Positions 2,109-45,164 of a stretch of DNA of 64,000 nt are shown in pieces. Source of the stretch: Escherichia coli (GTDB lineage Bacteria; Pseudomonadota; Gammaproteobacteria; Enterobacterales; Enterobacteriaceae). Where the stretch lies: the NCBI RefSeq assembly GCF_029227855.1, contig NZ_CP074356.1; one strand, 5' to 3'. The translations under genes were made by a program, and so were the position numbers. The notes beneath the pieces are model-generated. The model saw nothing but the letters and a program-made list of their open reading frames with translations. It ran no database searches and had not been told where the DNA came from. The number at the start of each line of letters is the position of its first letter. The first letter of the stretch is position 1.

Positions 2109-2686
2109 GAGTTCCCCGCGCCAGCGGGGATAAACCGATTTTGGTGGCGGGGGTGACTGGGGGAATACTGAGTTCCCCGCGCCAGCGGGGATAAACCGTC
2201 CGAGCGCGTAATAGCGCGCGCCCGGAAACAGAGTTCCCCGCGCCAGCGGGGATAAACCGCGGCACCAGGGCTGAAAGGCGGGGCCGCTAAAGAGTTCCCC
2301 GCGCCAGCGGGGATAAACCGGCCAGCGGCGCTGAGTACGACGACCTGATTAAGAGTTCCCCGCGCCAGCGGGGATAAACCGTCAATACAACAGCAATGCT
2401 GGAGCTGGAAAAAGAGTTCCCCGCGCCAGCGGGGATAAACCGGTACCGTTGAGCAATGGTGGGTAAATGGTGCTGAGTTCCCCGCGCCAGCGGGGATAAA
2501 CCGATTTAGATACGGCACACAGGAATGCGCTGGATGAGTTCCCCGCGCCAGCGGGGATAAACCGCATGGGAGTCCAGATTACAAATTCCAGAATGGGAGT
2601 TCCCCGCGCCAGCGGGGATAAACCGCGTTTAGCTCCGCAATGTTGGATATCACTGATGAGTTCCCCGCACCAGCGGGAATAAACCA
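2109..2686 (+). CRISPR. Type I-E CRISPR array (orphan, queE-ygcE intergenic), 9 spacers
   Basis: Nine 29-bp repeats GAGTTCCCCGCGCCAGCGGGGATAAACCG at a 61-bp period (2109, 2170 ... 2597) plus a degenerate terminal repeat at 2658-2686; nine unique 32-bp spacers; leader on the queE side sets orientation. Confidence 0.95.
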
Positions 2687-10165: not shown

Positions 10166-10922
10166 AGCCGAACCGGATGCCGGAATGCTGGCGGAAAAAG
10201 AGTGGCAGGCGGCGGCTCAGGGTAATAGCGGACCGGATGTTTCGCTTCTGCGAAGTTTGCTCGGTGCTGATGAACAGGCTGCCGCCGCGCTGCTGATGGC
10301 GCAGAGAAAAAACGGTACGTCGATGTCTTTAACCGCGTTGAGCATGGGGGATGAACGGGCGTTGCACTGGCTGCGCTATCTTATGGCTCTTGGGTTTGAG
10401 GAAGCTGTATTGCTGGAGACGGCGGCAGATCTGCGCTTTGCGCCGGAATTTGTCGCTCGCCATATTGCCGAATGGCAGAACCAGAATCCGCTGGAGCTGA
10501 TAATTACTGGCTGCCAAAGCAGCGAAGGGCAGAATGGGCAAACGCCATTTTTGCTGGCGGAAATGCTGGGCTGGCCCTGCTTCACCCAGGTGGAGCGTTT
10601 TACTCTCGACGCGCCGTTTATCACCCTTGAACAGCGTACTGAAAACGGGCTGCGCTGTTGCCGGGTTCGCTTGCCTGCGGTGATTGCCGTGCGTCAGTGC
10701 GGTGAAGTGGCCTTGCCAGTACCGGGAATGCGTCAGCGAATGGCGGCGGGGAAAGCAGCAATTATCCGTAAAACTGTTGCTGCCGAATCGCCAGCGATGC
10801 AGTGTCTGCAACTGGCAAGAGCAGAGCAACAACGCGGAGCGACGCTGATTGATGGGCAAACGGTAGCAGAAAAAGCGCAAAAGCTATGGCAGGACTATTT
10901 ACGCCAAAGGATGCAGCCATGA
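10143..10922 (+). CDS. ygcR: Electron-transfer flavoprotein beta-like subunit (FixA-like)
   Basis: Track ORF 10128-10922; start at ATG after GGAGGT RBS (MNILLAFKAEPDAGML...); ETF-beta family by recalled similarity. Confidence 0.8.
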   Translation: MNILLAFKAEPDAGMLAEKEWQAAAQGNSGPDVSLLRSLLGADEQAAAALLMAQRKNGTSMSLTALSMGDERALHWLRYLMALGFEEAVLLETAADLRFAPEFVARHIAEWQNQNPLELIITGCQSSEGQNGQTPFLLAEMLGWPCFTQVERFTLDAPFITLEQRTENGLRCCRVRLPAVIAVRQCGEVALPVPGMRQRMAAGKAAIIRKTVAAESPAMQCLQLARAEQQRGATLIDGQTVAEKAQKLWQDYLRQRMQP

Positions 10923-11779
10923 ATATCGCAATTGTGACAATAAATCAGGAGAATGCCGCAATAGCGAGCTGGCTGGCAGAACAGGATTTCAGCGGTTGTA
11001 CCCTGGCACACTGGCAGATTGAACCTCAGCCCGTAGTGGCGGAACAGGTGCTGGATGCGCTGGTGGAACAGTGGCAGCGAACGCCTGCGGACGTTGTTCT
11101 CTTTCCGCCGGGAACGTTTGGCGATGAACTGTCGACCCGGCTGGCCTGGCGTTTACATGGAGCAAGCATCTGCCAGGTGACTTCGTTAGATATTCCAACC
11201 GTAAGCGTGCGCAAATCCCACTGGGGAAATGCGCTAACGGCGACGCTGCAAACAGAAAAACGCCCGCTATGCCTTTCCCTGGCGCGTCAGGCGGGAGCAG
11301 CGAAAAACGCCACGTTGCCCTCTGGTATGCAGCAACTGAACATTGTCCCAGGTGCGCTTCCCGACTGGCTGGTTAGCATAGAGAATCTGAAAAATGTTAG
11401 CCGCGACCCATTAGCTGAAGCCAGACGGGTGCTGGTGGTGGGGCAGGGCGGAGAGGCAGATAACCAGGAAATCGCTATGCTGGCAGAAAAGCTGGGAGCC
11501 GAAGTGGGCTACAGTCGGGCGCGAGTGATGAACGGTGGCGTTGATGCTGAAAAAGTGATTGGTATTTCCGGACATCTGCTGGCACCTGAGGTGTGTATTG
11601 TTGTTGGCGCTTCCGGCGCAGCAGCGTTAATGGCGGGCGTACGCAATAGCAAGTTTGTGGTGGCGATTAATCATGACGCCAGCGCAACGGTATTTTCACA
11701 GGCAGATGTTGGCGTGGTTGATGACTGGAAAGTGGTGCTGGAGGCACTGGTGACAAACATTCACGCAGAATGCCAATAA
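10919..11779 (+). CDS. ygcQ: Electron-transfer flavoprotein alpha-like subunit (FixB-like)
   Basis: Track ORF 10886-11779; start at ATG overlapping the ygcR stop (MNIAIVTINQENAA...); ETF-alpha C-terminal FAD-binding region. Confidence 0.8.
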   Translation: MNIAIVTINQENAAIASWLAEQDFSGCTLAHWQIEPQPVVAEQVLDALVEQWQRTPADVVLFPPGTFGDELSTRLAWRLHGASICQVTSLDIPTVSVRKSHWGNALTATLQTEKRPLCLSLARQAGAAKNATLPSGMQQLNIVPGALPDWLVSIENLKNVSRDPLAEARRVLVVGQGGEADNQEIAMLAEKLGAEVGYSRARVMNGGVDAEKVIGISGHLLAPEVCIVVGASGAAALMAGVRNSKFVVAINHDASATVFSQADVGVVDDWKVVLEALVTNIHAECQ

Positions 11780-28386: not shown

Positions 28387-29025
28387 GTGTTCCCCGCGCC
28401 AGCGGGGATAAATCGAGATCACCGTGTTAAATAACCGATTGAACGCCGTGTTCCCCGCGCCAGCGGGGATAAATCGGCCAGGCCAATACAGTTGGCGAAG
28501 AAGCGAAGGTGTTCCCCGCGCCAGCGGGGATAAATCGACACCGGGCTGGATAAAAAAACTATCGGGAAAGTGTTCCCCGCGCCAGCGGGGATAAATCGCC
28601 GTTTGATAGCTGTTCACGCTGGCTGATGCCGTGTTCCCCGCGCCAGCGGGGATAAACCGCGCAGTTCGCTACCGAGCGTGGTTTGCTGGTCGTGTTCCCC
28701 GCGCCAGCGGGGATAAACCGGCGCACAGCGACGCGAAATCAACGAAAATTTAGTGTTCCCCGCGCCAGCGGGGATAAACCGATTGCCAGATACTGTGTAT
28801 ATCCACCGACTAAGTGTTCCCCGCGCCAGCGGGGATAAACCGCAGGGAAACCGTTCGTACTTATCGACCTCAACGTGTTCCCCGCGCCAGCGGGGATAAA
28901 CCGAAGGGGACGGCTACGGGACGCCGCCTATTGATGTGTTCCCCGCGTCAGCGGGGATAAACCGGACGCACTGGATGCGATGATGGACATCACTTGGAGT
29001 TCCCCGCCCCTGCGGTAGAACTCCC
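28387..29025 (+). CRISPR. Type I-E CRISPR array (cas-associated), 10 spacers
   Basis: Ten 29-bp repeats at a 61-bp period (28387 ... 28936) plus a degenerate terminal repeat at 28997-29025; ten unique 32-bp spacers. Repeats 1-4 end AAATCG, repeats 5-10 end AAACCG. Confidence 0.95.
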
Positions 29026-37910: not shown

Positions 37911-39050
37911 ATGAGCGCGGGAAGCCCAAAATTCACCGTTCGCCGCATTGCGGCTTTGTCACTGGTTTCGCTATGGCTGGCAGGCTGTTCTGACACTTCA
38001 AATCCACCGGCCCCGGTCAGCTCCGTTAATGGCAATGCGCCTGCAAATACCAATTCTGGTATGTTGATTACGCCGCCGCCGAAAATGGGGACGACGTCTA
38101 CAGCTCAGCAACCGCAAATTCAGCCGGTACAGCAGCCACAAATTCAGGCAACTCAACAACCGCAAATCCAGCCGGTGCAGCCAGTAGCTCAGCAGCCGGT
38201 ACAGATGGAAAACGGACGCATCGTCTATAACCGTCAGTATGGGAACATTCCGAAAGGCAGTTATAGCGGCAGTACCTATACCGTGAAAAAAGGCGACACA
38301 CTTTTCTATATCGCCTGGATTACTGGCAACGATTTCCGTGACCTTGCTCAGCGCAACAATATTCAGGCACCATACGCGCTGAACGTTGGTCAGACCTTGC
38401 AGGTGGGTAATGCTTCCGGTACGCCAATCACTGGCGGAAATGCCATTACCCAGGCCGACGCAGCAGAGCAAGGAGTTGTGATCAAGCCTGCACAAAATTC
38501 CACCGTTGCTGTTGCGTCGCAACCGACAATTACGTATTCTGAGTCTTCGGGTGAACAGAGTGCTAACAAAATGTTGCCGAACAACAAGCCAACTGCGACC
38601 ACGGTCACAGCGCCTGTAACGGTACCAACAGCAAGCACAACCGAGCCGACTGTCAGCAGTACATCAACCAGTACGCCTATCTCCACCTGGCGCTGGCCGA
38701 CTGAGGGCAAAGTGATCGAAACCTTTGGCGCTTCTGAGGGGGGCAACAAGGGGATTGATATCGCAGGCAGCAAAGGACAGGCAATTATCGCGACCGCAGA
38801 TGGCCGCGTTGTTTATGCCGGTAACGCGCTGCGCGGCTACGGTAATCTGATTATCATCAAACATAATGATGATTACCTGAGTGCCTACGCCCATAACGAC
38901 ACAATGCTGGTCCGGGAACAACAAGAAGTGAAGGCGGGGCAAAAAATAGCAACCATGGGTAGCACCGGAACCAGTTCAACACGCTTGCATTTTGAAATTC
39001 GTTACAAGGGGAAATCCGTAAACCCGCTGCGTTATTTGCCGCAGCGATAA
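37911..39050 (+). CDS. nlpD: Murein hydrolase activator lipoprotein NlpD (LysM + M23 peptidase-like)
   Basis: 379-aa ORF with lipoprotein signal (LWLAGCSD), Q/P-rich repeats, LysM and M23-like C-terminal domain; its 3' part is expected to hold the main rpoS promoter (established knowledge, not read directly). Confidence 0.9.
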
Positions 39051-39112
39051 ATCGGCGGAACCAGGCTTTTGCTTGAATGTTCCGTCAAGGGATCACGGGT
39101 AGGAGCCACCTT

Positions 39113-40105
39113 ATGAGTCAGAATACGCTGAAAGTTCATGATTTAAATGAAGATGCGGAATTTGATGAGAACGGAGTTGAGGTTTTTGACGAAAAGGCCT
39201 TAGTAGAAGAGGAACCCAGTGATAACGATTTGGCCGAAGAGGAACTGTTATCGCAGGGAGCCACACAGCGTGTGCTGGACGCGACTCAGCTTTACCTTGG
39301 TGAGATTGGTTATTCACCACTGTTAACGGCCGAAGAAGAAGTTTATTTTGCGCGTCGCGCACTGCGTGGAGATGTTGCCTCCCGCCGCCGGATGATCGAG
39401 AGTAACTTGCGTCTGGTGGTAAAAATTGCCCGCCGTTATGGCAATCGTGGTCTGGCGTTGCTGGACCTGATCGAAGAGGGCAACCTGGGGCTGATCCGCG
39501 CGGTAGAGAAGTTTGACCCGGAACGTGGTTTCCGCTTCTCAACATACGCAACCTGGTGGATTCGCCAGACGATCGAACGGGCGATTATGAACCAAACCCG
39601 TACTATTCGTTTGCCTATTCACATCGTAAAGGAGCTGAACGTTTACCTGCGAACCGCACGCGAGTTGTCCCATAAACTGGACCACGAACCAAGTGCGGAA
39701 GAGATCGCAGAGCAACTGGATAAGCCAGTTGATGACGTCAGCCGTATGCTTCGTCTTAACGAGCGCATTACCTCGGTAGACACCCCGCTGGGTGGTGATT
39801 CCGAAAAAGCGTTGCTGGACATCCTGGCCGATGAAAAAGAGAACGGTCCGGAAGATACCACGCAAGATGACGATATGAAGCAGAGCATCGTCAAATGGCT
39901 GTTCGAGCTGAACGCCAAACAGCGTGAAGTACTGGCACGTCGATTCGGTTTGCTGGGGTACGAAGCGGCAACACTGGAAGATGTAGGTCGTGAAATTGGC
40001 CTCACCCGTGAACGTGTTCGCCAGATTCAGGTTGAAGGCCTGCGCCGTTTGCGCGAAATCCTGCAAACGCAGGGGCTGAATATCGAAGCGCTGTTCCGCG
40101 AGTAA
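39113..40105 (+). CDS. rpoS: RNA polymerase sigma factor RpoS (sigma-38), apparently intact
   Basis: Track ORF 39077-40105; start at [40 protein letters not shown]... (330 aa); sigma-70 family regions 2-4; no internal stop. Confidence 0.95.
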
Positions 40106-40120
40106 GTAAGCATCTGTCAG

Positions 40121-40153
40121 AAAGGCCAGTCTCAAGCGAGGCTGGCCTTTTTG
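40121..40153 (+). terminator. Rho-independent terminator of rpoS
   Basis: Stem AGGCCAG...CTGGCCT (40123-40129 / 40142-40148) followed by TTTTTG, 16 bp after the rpoS stop. Confidence 0.6.
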
Positions 40154-40154
40154 T

Positions 40155-40875
40155 TGTGCACAGAAAACCCCCAGCTAGGCTGGGGGTTCCGGAAAGCTTT
40201 CAGCTTTAAGCCAGTTATTAAAACCCCTTTTGATTTGTTAAAACACCTTGCGGTCTGGCAACTGCAAGTGTCAAACAAGAAATCAAAAGGGGGTCCCAAT
40301 GGGGAACGAAAAGAGCTTAGCGCACACCCGATGGAACTGTAAATATCACATAGTTTTTGCGCCAAAATACCGAAGACAGGTGTTCTACAGAGAGAAGCGT
40401 AGAGCAATAGGCAGTATTTTGAGAAAGCTGTGTGAGTGGAAAAGTGTACGGATTCTGGAAGCTGAATGCTGTGCAGATCATATCCATATGCTTGTGGAGA
40501 TCCCGCCCAAAATGAGCGTATCCGGCTTTATGGGATATCTGAAAGGGAAAAGCAGTCTGATGCTTTACGAGCAGTTTGGTGATTTGAAATTCAAATACAG
40601 GAACAGGGAGTTCTGGTGCAGAGGGTACTACGTCGATACGGTGGGTAAGAACACGGCGAAGATACAGGATTACATAAAGCACCAGCTTGAAGAGGATAAA
40701 ATGGGAGAGCAGTTATCGATTCCCTATCCGGGCAGCCCGTTTACGGGCCGTAAGTAACGAAGTTGGATGCAAATGTCAGATCGTGTGCGCCTGTTAGGGC
40801 GCGGCTGGTAAGAGAGCCTTATAGGCGCATTTGAAAAACCTCCGGCTATGCCGGAGGATATTTATTTCTTTTGGT
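40155..40875 (+). mobile_element. IS200-family insertion sequence (IS200/IS605 family); ends approximate
   Basis: About 0.7 kb unit with a left-end hairpin (CCCCCAGCTAGGCTGGGGG, ~40166-40188), a single Y1-transposase gene, and a right-end hairpin CCTCCGGCTATGCCGGAGG (~40838-40856) followed by a T-rich run; IS200 lacks terminal inverted repeats, so ends are estimated. Confidence 0.6.
40299..40757 (+). CDS. tnpA: IS200 transposase TnpA (HuH Y1 transposase)
   Basis: Track ORF 40248-40757; start at MGNEKSLAHTRWNCKYHIVFAPKYRRQVFY... (152 aa); HxH motif (ADHIHMLVEIPP); near-identical to recalled Salmonella IS200 TnpA. Confidence 0.85.
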   Translation: MGNEKSLAHTRWNCKYHIVFAPKYRRQVFYREKRRAIGSILRKLCEWKSVRILEAECCADHIHMLVEIPPKMSVSGFMGYLKGKSSLMLYEQFGDLKFKYRNREFWCRGYYVDTVGKNTAKIQDYIKHQLEEDKMGEQLSIPYPGSPFTGRK

Positions 40876-40939
40876 TGGGGAGCCGGTGTGTTTGTGGGCT
40901 GGATAAGCCGCGATAGCGTCTCATCCGGCAATTTGCACC

Positions 40940-41347
40940 CTATGTGTTCATCATCTTGCGCACTAGCTGCATAAACAGCTCCTGCTCTTCTCCACTCAAA
41001 CGCCCCAAAAATTCCTCATCCACGCTGTCACCTATCGGTATCGCCGCAGCAAGTATCTTTTCGCCTTCGGCAGTCAGCCAGACAAAGCGTCGCCGCTTGT
41101 CAGCGGCGTCATGTTCACGTCTGACTAAGCCACGATTTTCCATTCTTGCCAACATTTCTGCCAGCGTTGCTTTGGTGCTGACGGCTGCTTCTATCAGTGC
41201 CACCTGTTCGATACCAGGCTTATCAGCAATGGCGCGCATCACCGCGTACTGTGGTTTGGTCAGGTCAGGTAACTCGTGCTGCCAGCGGGCCGTGTGTTGC
41301 TGAAAAAGCTGTCGTAACTGATGGAACGCTTTATTTCGTAACGCCAT
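40940..41347 (-). CDS. MarR-family transcriptional regulator
   Basis: 135-aa ORF MALRNKAFHQLRQLFQQHTARWQHELPDLTKPQYAVMRAIADKPGIEQVALIEAAVSTKATLAEMLARMENRGLVRRE...; winged-helix MarR pattern; divergent from the decarboxylase operon. Confidence 0.75.
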   Translation of the reverse strand: MALRNKAFHQLRQLFQQHTARWQHELPDLTKPQYAVMRAIADKPGIEQVALIEAAVSTKATLAEMLARMENRGLVRREHDAADKRRRFVWLTAEGEKILAAAIPIGDSVDEEFLGRLSGEEQELFMQLVRKMMNT

Positions 41348-43524: not shown

Positions 43525-43761
43525 ATGATTTGTCCACGTTGTGCCGATGAACAGATTGAAGTGATGGCGAAATCGCCGGTAAAAGATGTCTGGACGGTCT
43601 ACCAGTGCCAGCATTGCCTCTATACCTGGCGCGATACCGAACCGCTACGCCGCACCAGCCGCGAACATTACCCGGAAGCGTTTCGTATGACGCAGAAAGA
43701 CATTGATGACGCGCCAATGGTGCCGAGCATTCCGCCGCTGCTGGCGGAAGGTAAGCGCTAA
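43525..43761 (+). CDS. Decarboxylase small subunit D (zinc-ribbon-like, four Cys)
   Basis: 78-aa ORF MICPRCADEQIEVMAKSPVKDVWTVYQCQHCLYTWRD... with CxxC...CxxC; third gene of the B-C-D operon, 10 bp after subunit C. Confidence 0.7.
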   Translation: MICPRCADEQIEVMAKSPVKDVWTVYQCQHCLYTWRDTEPLRRTSREHYPEAFRMTQKDIDDAPMVPSIPPLLAEGKR

Positions 43762-43763
43762 AT

Positions 43764-43795
43764 AAAAGGTCCGATGCCCATCGGACCTTTTTATT
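43764..43795. terminator. Bidirectional hairpin terminator between convergent decarboxylase operon and ygbN
   Basis: AAAAGGTCCGATG...CATCGGACCTTTTT: GC-rich hairpin flanked by A-run and T-run. Confidence 0.5.
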
Positions 43796-43799
43796 AAGG

Positions 43800-45164
43800 T
43801 CAAATTACCGCCCATACGCACCAGGTAATTAAGAATCCGGTAAAACCGAGAATGGTCGTTAACACTGTCCAGGTTTTCAGACCGTCTGCTACCGACAACC
43901 CCAGATATTTGGTCACAATCCAGAACCCTGAGTCATTAATATGTGACGCGCCAAGCCCACCAAAGCAGGCTGCCAGCGTCACCAATACGCACTGAATCGG
44001 ATTCAATCCCATCACCGCTTCTGAGAGTAACCCGCCGGTTGTCAGGATTGCTACGGTTGCTGACCCCTGCGATGCACGCAGCGCCAGTGAAATAATAAAT
44101 GCGGCTGGTAACAGAGGCAGGTCAATCATTTGTAGCATGTTGGCAAGGGCTTTGCCGACGCCCGATTCCACCAGCACTTTGCCAAATACCCCTCCAGCAC
44201 CAGTAACCAAAATCACTACCGCCGCGGTGGGAAGGGCTGAGCCCATAATGTCGCTGGTGTGTTGTAAGCTCCAGCCGCGACGTAAAGCCAATAACCAGAA
44301 TGCCAGCACCAGCGCAATCATTAGAGCTACCATTGGTGAGCCGATCAGCTGTAGCGTACCAAGCAGGGGATGCGAAGGCGGCATCAGTGTTGCGGAAACC
44401 GTACCCGCCATGATAATCGCGATAGGAATAACAATTAGCGAGGTGACCAGCGCGACGCCCGGTGGATTTATTTTATCGCTTAATTTTGTCGCGCCTTCCT
44501 CACTGGCCGGAGCCAGTTGCATCTGTTCCAGTACTTCCACCGACATCGCATATTGGCACTTATTGATTATTTTCGCTGCAAAGTAGCCAACAATCCCTAC
44601 GGGAATAGAAATCGCAATACCGATGATGGTTAGCCAGCCGATGTCTGCGTGGAGTAACCCCGCTGCGGCGACAGGGCCTGGATGCGGCGGTACCGCCACA
44701 TGAACAGTTAGCATGATTCCAGCGACAGGCAGGCCAAATTTGAGTGGCGATATTTTGGCAACCTTGGCAAAACCGTAAATGATTGGCGCAAGAATAATAA
44801 AGCCGACATCAAAGAAGACGGGAATACCGAGGAAGAACGCTGCCAGAGTCAGCGCAGCGATAGTTCGTTTGTCACCTAACTTGCGACTGAAATAATTAGC
44901 CAGTGACTCTGCACCACCAGAGTGTTCGATCATACGCCCCAGCATAGCGCCCAGACCAATAATAATAGTGACGGAACCAAGCACACCGCCCATCCCGGCG
45001 ATCATCACTTTACCCACTTCGCCCGCCGGTATACCCGCCGCAAGTGCGACTAACAGGCTGACGAGGAGCAGAGCAACGAATGGTTGTACCTTTGCCTTGA
45101 TGACCAGCAGCAACAGCATGATTACGCCAGTTAACGCAATGCATAACAATGTAATTGTGGACAT
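43800..45164 (-). CDS. ygbN: GntP-family permease
   Basis: 454-aa polytopic membrane ORF MSTITLLCIALTGVIMLLLLVIKAKVQPFVALLLVSLLVALAAG... Confidence 0.85.
   Translation of the reverse strand: MSTITLLCIALTGVIMLLLLVIKAKVQPFVALLLVSLLVALAAGIPAGEVGKVMIAGMGGVLGSVTIIIGLGAMLGRMIEHSGGAESLANYFSRKLGDKRTIAALTLAAFFLGIPVFFDVGFIILAPIIYGFAKVAKISPLKFGLPVAGIMLTVHVAVPPHPGPVAAAGLLHADIGWLTIIGIAISIPVGIVGYFAAKIINKCQYAMSVEVLEQMQLAPASEEGATKLSDKINPPGVALVTSLIVIPIAIIMAGTVSATLMPPSHPLLGTLQLIGSPMVALMIALVLAFWLLALRRGWSLQHTSDIMGSALPTAAVVILVTGAGGVFGKVLVESGVGKALANMLQMIDLPLLPAAFIISLALRASQGSATVAILTTGGLLSEAVMGLNPIQCVLVTLAACFGGLGASHINDSGFWIVTKYLGLSVADGLKTWTVLTTILGFTGFLITWCVWAVI

Follow-up and report, generated by a model that had tools for sequence, protein, structure and literature searches.

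An IS200C element in the tail of the rpoS terminator of Escherichia coli and the terminator sites occupied by its sister copies

IS200 of Salmonella enterica is a compact element with a terminator hairpin at nt 12–34 and a stem at nt 69–138 in which the Shine-Dalgarno sequence is sequestered (PMC4513863). The left-end hairpin terminates transcription in both directions, keeps read-through out of tnpA (PMC4513863, PMC5435999) and halts about 85% of incoming transcripts (PMC5435999). The catalytic set of the family consists of a HUH motif, a nucleophilic tyrosine and, about 4 residues further on, a polar residue that binds the metal (PMC6006769), and IS608 and ISDra2 transpose at the replication fork by way of a circular intermediate that is single-stranded (PMC5027513, PMC2806898). 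On the IS608 model, the targets of the family are short tetra- or pentanucleotides recognised through base pairing (PMC5934647, PMC3201880). A strong excess of terminator-like sequences has been reported immediately upstream of IS200/IS605 elements and was read as a means of limiting transposase expression (bioRxiv 10.1101/2025.07.22.666184), and a copy of IS1541 is found between pheL and pheA, that is, after an attenuator terminator (PMC3082878). An explicit description of terminator tails as the target of IS200 was not found in the accessible literature, where the subject appears in general terms only.

In the window, by which we mean the whole 64-kb stretch of E. coli DNA that was analysed, positions 40156–40867 very probably hold, judging from the sequence, a complete and apparently transposition-competent copy of IS200C (IS200 group, IS200/IS605 family), lodged in the tail of the rpoS terminator. 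It is the single IS200C copy of the window. The preliminary description had recognised a unit of IS200 type with one TnpA gene, structured ends and no terminal inverted repeats, immediately downstream of the rpoS terminator, and all of this was confirmed, the IS beginning right after the terminator T-run. The span that it gave, 40106–40939, does contain the unit, but is too wide: to the left it extends over the rpoS terminator, and to the right over a REP-like unit of the chromosome. The element runs from 40156 (from 40153 if three extra bases, GTT, are counted) to 40867. The locus is laid out as follows.

39077–40105, + strand: rpoS coding sequence, given as the longest frame in the ORF list; the annotated 330-aa protein begins further in (colinear JNEC-KY178 locus, 99.99% identical).
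40118–40153, + strand: rpoS intrinsic terminator, with core stem 40124–40133 / 40138–40147 (10 bp) and T-run 40148–40152.
40153–40155, + strand: the extra bases GTT, which separate the canonical left end from the T-run of the terminator.
40156–40867, + strand: canonical IS200C element, 712 bp, GTGCACAG...GGATATTTATTT, with ends common to copies at 15 other sites.
40166–40188, + strand: left-end hairpin AACCCCCAGC-TAG-GCTGGGGGTT, an inverted repeat of 100% complementarity (DNA fold −11.7 kcal/mol, 0/200 shuffles as good).
40166–40289, + strand: structured 5' region of tnpA, locus of the art200 antisense RNA (Rfam STnc490), a full-length match to RF01405.
40224–40292, + strand: 5'UTR stem, Shine-Dalgarno-sequestering in published IS200; inverted repeat with 16-nt arms, 94% complementary.
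40299–40757, + strand: tnpA, encoding a Y1 HUH transposase of 152 aa, the sole ORF of family type in the 712 bp.
40786–40829, + strand: interior stem-loop in the gap from tnpA to the right-end hairpin; inverted repeat with 13-nt arms, 85% complementary, present in the fold of 40760–40867.
40834–40867, + strand: right end, made up of GAAAAA, the hairpin CCTCCGGC-TAT-GCCGGAGG (40839–40857) and the T-rich tail ATATTTATTT (40858–40867).
40898–40929, − strand: chromosomal REP-like palindrome GCCGGATG...CTTATCC, outside the IS and 30 nt past its right end.
40940–41347, − strand: gene for a MarR-family regulator, the first of the variable segment, convergent to rpoS.
41494 onward: genes for hydroxyarylic acid decarboxylase subunits B, C and D, beyond the MarR gene.

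The boundaries follow from two kinds of comparison. Because empty sites, present in many other E. coli genomes (CFSAN018748 and E2348/69 among others), read GGCTGGCCTTTTT/CTTTTGGTTGGGG, where the slash marks the junction here and below, the inserted DNA was set at 40153–40867 (715 bp), with an alignment ambiguity of 3 T's. This comparison with empty sites had been proposed in the preliminary description; besides fixing the inserted DNA it reveals no target-site duplication, as two sister insertions (L106 and L107) correspond exactly to the empty site with the element added. An inverted-repeat search of the element likewise found no terminal inverted repeats from end to end. The second comparison was made with copies at 15 other places, located 3' of atpC, fadR, clpA, guaA, bamD, the ygbN/decarboxylase-D hairpin and others. 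All other IS200C copies have GTGCACAG...GGATATTTATT(T) in common and measure 711 bp where there is one T fewer, the terminal 1–3 T's at both ends being assignable by sequence to element or target alike. By the published numbering of IS200, nt 1 would fall at about 40155.

The body of the window copy shows 0 differences from those at atpC, fadR, clpA and the K-12-type ygbN site of other E. coli strains. A fragment or a unit foreign to the IS200 group, either of which the preliminary description had named as speaking against its reading, was looked for; since the copy has its full length, with a body that matches other genomic copies letter for letter, it is neither a fragment nor a decayed relic. 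The same insertion is present in one RefSeq genome, JNEC-KY178, with 100% identity over 851 bp and 99.98–99.99% over 24 kb, and the identical protein encoded there (WP_000526135.1) bears the RefSeq/PGAP label 'IS200/IS605-like element IS200C family transposase'. The name IS200C as used here is based on this NCBI naming together with the copy-to-copy and empty-site comparisons. The element is already known, catalogued and labelled by automatic pipelines, and its location is typical.

The transposase, of the Y1 HUH type that acts on single-stranded DNA, matches the NCBIfam model NF033573 (transpos_IS200) with 147.7 bits against a cut-off of 55, carries the Pfam domain PF01797 (Y1_Tnp) and aligns to the solved IS200-family transposases 2ec2, 2f4f, 2a6m (IS608) and 2xm3 (ISDra2) with E values from 4e-23 to 2e-16. 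Its catalytic residues are intact, with H61-I-H63, Tyr125 and Gln129 matching the DHIH and YI..Q motifs of the solved relatives. Neither tnpB nor iscB is present, tnpA being the only gene in the 712 bp. The protein had been described as almost identical to Salmonella IS200 TnpA, which is roughly right: in a comparison made with named proteins, those labelled as Salmonella IS200 TnpA are 94–96% identical to that of the window.

Both structures published for Salmonella IS200 recur in the window copy, at 40166–40188 and 40224–40292. The left-end hairpin is also the first helix of the STnc490 match, which reaches 146.1 bits (gathering score 56; E 4.7e-31) on 40166–40289, and the fold of 40156–40303 has a free energy of −36.3 kcal/mol and a z-score of −6.06. 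The STnc490 model matches the tnpA-sense strand, and the published art200 RNA is antisense (PMC4513863). At the other end of the element, the design is GAAAAA, an 8-bp hairpin, ATA and TTTATT/. The right-end hairpin folds as DNA at −10.0 kcal/mol (0/200 shuffles as good) and is terminator-like on both strands in a consensus terminator scan. In Vibrio and Sutterella relatives the stem reads CCACCGGC...GCCGGTGG, a compensatory change by which the stem is kept. The left-end terminator hairpin, the 5'UTR stem that keeps the ribosome-binding site hidden and the locus of the art200 antisense RNA are the known self-silencing parts of the element.

The site that received the element is the tail of an intrinsic terminator. 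The rpoS terminator consists of the 10-bp core stem followed by TTTTT and lies 13–47 nt 3' of the stop codon; it folds as DNA at −13.8 kcal/mol (z −5.45, 0/200 shuffles as good), and the 41 nt 5' of the insertion point fold as RNA at −23.6 kcal/mol. It was not listed by the consensus terminator scan, probably since the maximal stem absorbs the T-run, and folding was used instead. The hairpin is unbroken in the empty sites. IS200C stands directly 3' of the T-run in the orientation of rpoS, its left end toward rpoS. With the rpoS terminator ahead of it and terminator-like hairpins of its own on both sides, the IS would be expected to leave rpoS and the convergent MarR gene unaffected, and the insertion is predicted to be neutral.

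The REP-like palindrome beyond the right end, to which the preliminary description had drawn attention as a possible context of insertion, is real and lies at 40898–40929, but it is a bystander; the structure that counts for placement is the terminator hairpin with its T-tail. The arms of the palindrome fit what we take to be the REP consensus, GCCGGATG...CTTATCCGGC, an imperfect palindrome of about 35 nt. The match to Rfam naRNA4, a REP-derived family, reaches 27 bits and is below the gathering score of 59.5, and the fold is unremarkable (z −1.44). The palindrome is unchanged in the empty sites and is therefore older than the insertion. A REP as the insertion target was ruled out by its distance of 30 nt from the right end, by its presence in the empty sites and by the other sites, which have no REP requirement.

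The three bases GTT at 40153–40155 set this insertion apart. They are carried only by the window and JNEC-KY178, are missing from the empty sites and from the other insertions at the rpoS terminator, and are not a repeat of flanking sequence. An element start at TTGTGCACAG or GTTGTG was considered and ruled out by the 15 sites and by the sister insertions at rpoS. Most likely the bases would derive either from capture out of a donor reading ...TTTT/GTT/GTGCACAG, with left-end cleavage 3 nt upstream, or from a 3-nt slippage duplication within TTGTG. The fadR site has exactly the flank TTTT/GTT/GTGCACAG together with an identical IS body, and elements of the family can take in flanking bases through an alternative choice of boundary (PMC10055086).

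Comparison of the copies discloses a regular target, TTTNTT/. T is found at −1, −2 and −5 in 17/17 junctions and at −4 in 16/17, position −3 is free, and the junction is always at the left end of the element (17/17). These 17 junctions represent 15 distinct terminators, and at all 15 of the distinct sites that were folded the end of a strong hairpin (RNA fold −13 to −24 kcal/mol) lies 4–9 nt 5' of the junction. Even under a lenient hairpin criterion of dG ≤ −8 kcal/mol, a hairpin accompanies only 23% of the T-rich tails of the window; the observed sites, at −13 to −24 kcal/mol, are much stronger. The joint test for a hairpin plus T-tail is passed by 14 of the 15 sites, as against 50 of 4,000 random window positions. 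The upstream gene is directed at the IS in 13 of the 14 E. coli sites with gene calls, and the hairpins at those sites are the intrinsic terminators of the upstream genes. The same placement, directly after a terminator hairpin and T-tail, is seen in relatives from Vibrio, Edwardsiella, Budvicia, Erwinia and Sutterella. The placement of IS200C after a hairpin and TTTNTT/ is not coincidental. As for the direction of replication, the GC skew of the + strand is positive (+0.026), and on the K-12 map replication runs in the same direction as the rpoS, atpC, fadR and clpA sites; at bamD it is presumably head-on.

How such sites are found may be pictured from IS608 and ISDra2. Integration of IS200C 3' of the rpoS T-run without duplication would proceed by 'peel and paste' of a single-stranded circle. 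By analogy with IS608, about 4 bases 5' of each end hairpin would serve as a 'guide' pairing with the cleavage or target site (PMC3201880, PMC5934647), and T-rich sites would find their match in the A-rich GAAAA that stands 5' of each end hairpin. A terminator exposed on single-stranded DNA would, moreover, resemble the element's own right end, which the motif TTTNTT/ also closes in the form TTTATT/.

A simpler account holds that terminator tails are not recognised as such; a short T-rich motif (TTTNTT or TNTT) would be enough, and copies would persist only at harmless spots past terminators between convergent or tandem genes. All sites observed are natural, long-selected insertions, and an association with terminators alone could reflect purifying selection against insertions elsewhere. 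The T-rich motif by itself is common, with 1,967 positions in 128 kb (both strands), the A-rich GAAAA 5' of the end hairpins would suit T-rich sites, and short base-paired targets are what the IS608 analogy leads one to expect (PMC5934647, PMC3201880). Against this stand the strong hairpin 4–9 nt before the junction at 15 of 15 distinct sites, with 0 in other harmless AT-rich intergenic DNA, the same hairpin and TTTATT/ architecture at the right end of the element, and the fact that one and the same rpoS terminator was struck at least four times. We regard this account as possible, though doubtful, and prefer the reading in which the hairpin and its T-tail are part of what the element lands on.

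The recurrence at rpoS can be followed in complete genomes. Of 5,426 complete genomes screened with a junction-specific search, 16 have an IS200 left end fused to the rpoS terminator, and 2 more have an insertion at the K-12-type site. Four combinations of junction and element body point to at least four independent insertions in the tail of the rpoS terminator.

Event 1: junction CCTTTTT + GTT; body equal to the window copy; window and JNEC-KY178.
Event 2: junction CCTTTTT(T)/; 4–5 differences from the window copy; BEC1-S17-ESBL-09, EFF60 and XJ5.2, probably with 2 more.
Event 3: junction CCTTTTT/; 27 differences and a different TnpA (WP_000502112.1); 9 genomes.
Event 4: junction CCTTTTTCTT/, 3 nt further right; another set of 5–6 differences; MB53 and JNE120442.

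An IS200-family element between ygbN (o454) and rpoS had also been detected by PCR typing in one ST405 strain (PMC4209514), and in one genome an inversion between bamD and rpoS runs between two IS200 copies.

The insertion may have taken place outside the strain's own lineage and been acquired when homologous recombination brought in the entire rpoS-mutS segment of a donor already carrying it. The region is a known recombination mosaic (PMC4209514), and JNEC-KY178, with its identical 851 bp and its 24 kb at 99.98–99.99%, yet differs by an IS1 between nlpD and rpoS. Such a transfer is conceivable, if not the likelier course of events, and it leaves the identity of the feature unchanged, as the original event would still be the transposition of IS200C into a terminator tail. 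That the window copy is a dead relic, retained merely as harmless, is most improbable: IS200 is nearly dormant, with a very low transposition frequency and repression of its expression at several levels (PMC4513863, PMC5435999), but this copy is full length, with an open ORF and intact catalytic residues, the very same sequence occurs at four other loci of other strains, and several recent independent insertions have occurred at the same rpoS site.

The IS was said to mark the start of the variable rpoS-mutS region. This is literally true, the breakpoint being 1–3 nt away, but the element itself is found in few genomes. The window has the 'MarR-type' rpoS-mutS region, which about 2,400 of 5,409 genomes match at the junction; after the decarboxylase genes come ygbN to mutS, the same as in JNEC-KY178. 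K-12 is without the MarR-decarboxylase segment and diverges from the MarR type after GGCTGGCCTTTT, 1–3 nt from the insertion point. The IS200C insertion is a rare and recent addition, and the common rpoS-mutS polymorphism in this strain is not caused by the IS.

At the K-12 junction a terminator tail is followed exactly by GTGCACAG, the 8 nt with which the IS200C left end opens. We suggest, tentatively, that the transposases of the IS200 group select terminators (A-tract, hairpin, TTTNTT) which mimic their own right end (GAAAAA, hairpin, ATA-TTTATT/), giving rise to recurrent hotspots such as rpoS, and that this possible remnant in K-12 might record an IS200 insertion after which the 2.9-kb MarR-decarboxylase segment was lost through a microhomology-mediated deletion. 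A search for the intermediate that such a deletion predicts, in which an IS200 would follow the ygbN hairpin in the orientation of ygbN, yielded only insertions in the opposite (decarboxylase-D) orientation.

The finding is of modest use, for annotation and for the typing of strains. Typing of the rpoS-mutS region gains the precise ends and a record of the 3-nt oddity, and an IS200 at the rpoS site adds about 0.7 kb to PCR-based o454-nlpD patterns, of which one earlier instance exists (PMC4209514). The tail of the rpoS terminator is a repeatedly used landing site, and IS200 copies at such sites can drive rearrangements, as the bamD/rpoS inversion exemplifies. Only the regularity of the target and the possible IS200 left-end remnant at the K-12 junction go beyond the routine; a regular target of hairpin and TTTNTT/ that equals the element's own right end offers a concrete, testable hypothesis on target choice in the IS200 group.

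Among described systems, Salmonella enterica IS200 shares with this copy a size of about 710 bp, the single tnpA with a product 94–96% identical, the art200/STnc490 locus, the left-end hairpin at nt ~12–34, the Shine-Dalgarno-sequestering stem at nt ~69–138, and the want of inverted repeats and target duplication. The E. coli subtype IS200C differs from it by about 5% protein divergence, and the window copy by its GTT. IS1541 of Yersinia pestis and Y. pseudotuberculosis, which aligns colinearly to positions 1–712 of the element with 87.5% DNA identity, has the same organisation, but belongs to other species, attains a much higher copy number and is about 12% divergent in sequence. More distant are IS608 of H. 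pylori and ISDra2 of D. radiodurans, whose homologous Y1 HUH TnpA proteins match at E 4e-19 and 2e-16 to the structures, and which have subterminal hairpins and insert without duplication 3' of a short motif that their left end adjoins. These two carry tnpB as well and use the targets TTAC and TTGAT, for which a hairpin nearby is not known to be required, whereas the target of IS200C is TTTNTT/ beside a terminator hairpin, the same as its own right-end cleavage motif; pairing of guide and target in IS200C is proposed by analogy alone. Bacterial group IIC introns, retroelements that move by an RNA/reverse-transcriptase mechanism and lack homology to IS200, home to positions directly behind intrinsic terminator hairpins, at which they do no harm; the analogy with IS200C is a functional one only.

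At the rpoS-ygbN region of K-12, which is without the MarR gene and decarboxylase genes found in the window, the junction retains what may be a trace of the 712-bp element IS200C. Three loci outside the window bear on the history of this region:

E. coli K-12 MG1655 (NC_000913.3), locus L013, about 2006-2017: K-12-type junction, with two breakpoints as its counterparts in the window, about 40152 and about 43757.
Strain 200164, locus L111, 1005-1753, D orientation: IS200C at the bidirectional hairpin that separates ygbN from the gene for decarboxylase subunit D.
E. coli E200086 (NZ_CM128605.1), locus L108, 648-2700: bamD, then IS200, then the MarR gene.

On the ygbN strand, the K-12 junction runs GGACCTTTTATT, GTGCACAG and AAAAGGCCAGCC in that order, and GTGCACAG (at minimum the palindrome GTGCAC) comprises the only junction bases that are absent from the MarR-type arrangement. 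They correspond exactly to nt 1-8 of the IS200C left end; the match extends to 12/12 once the following AAAA is counted. Since GTGCACAG is moreover positioned exactly 3' of a TTTNTT-type terminator tail, the sequence suggests that the K-12-type junction originated by IS200 insertion followed by deletion over an AGAAAA microhomology; the probability of such a coincidence by chance is roughly 1e-4 to 1e-3. Such a deletion would have taken out both IS200 and the 2.9-kb MarR-decarboxylase segment, leaving the K-12-type junction behind. The intermediate predicted by this model, with IS200 in ygbN orientation after the ygbN hairpin, was searched for and not found.

The D-ygbN hairpin is a further landing site of IS200C, occupied in D orientation in at least nine complete genomes and empty of the element in the window (about 43757-43800). 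The variable 2.9-kb segment can thus have IS200C targets on either side.

A different rearrangement is seen in E200086, where the MarR gene, usually placed after rpoS, directly follows IS200 behind bamD, and where about 137 kb separate this locus from the rpoS-IS left junction of the same genome. This layout looks like an inversion through recombination of two inverted IS200 copies, one each at the bamD and rpoS terminators.

In a plasmid collection, many plasmids from E. coli, and some from Salmonella, also contain unannotated IS200C fragments. These are truncated at fixed points (nt 1-337, nt 13-498 and nt 571-711), and full copies are much rarer, being present in 172 of the 1,223 matching plasmids.

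Among other features, JNEC-KY178 (L001) carries an IS1A between nlpD and rpoS (10261-10958) that the otherwise near-identical window lacks (about 39050-39077). The rpoS of E2348/69 (L003 1-556) is annotated as a frameshifted pseudogene, unrelated to the IS. A hairpin scan surfaced copies of CGGTTTATCCCCGCTGGCGCGGGGAAC, the repeat of the type I-E CRISPR system of E. coli, at about 28400-28960 and about 2390-2410 (- strand) of the window; at the corresponding place in JNEC-KY178 the RefSeq annotation has a CRISPR array adjoining iap.

Within IS200C, the Rfam STnc490 model matches window positions 40166-40289 on the tnpA-sense strand. The art200/STnc490 RNA as published is antisense to the tnpA 5'UTR (PMC4513863); the match marks the locus and not which strand is transcribed.
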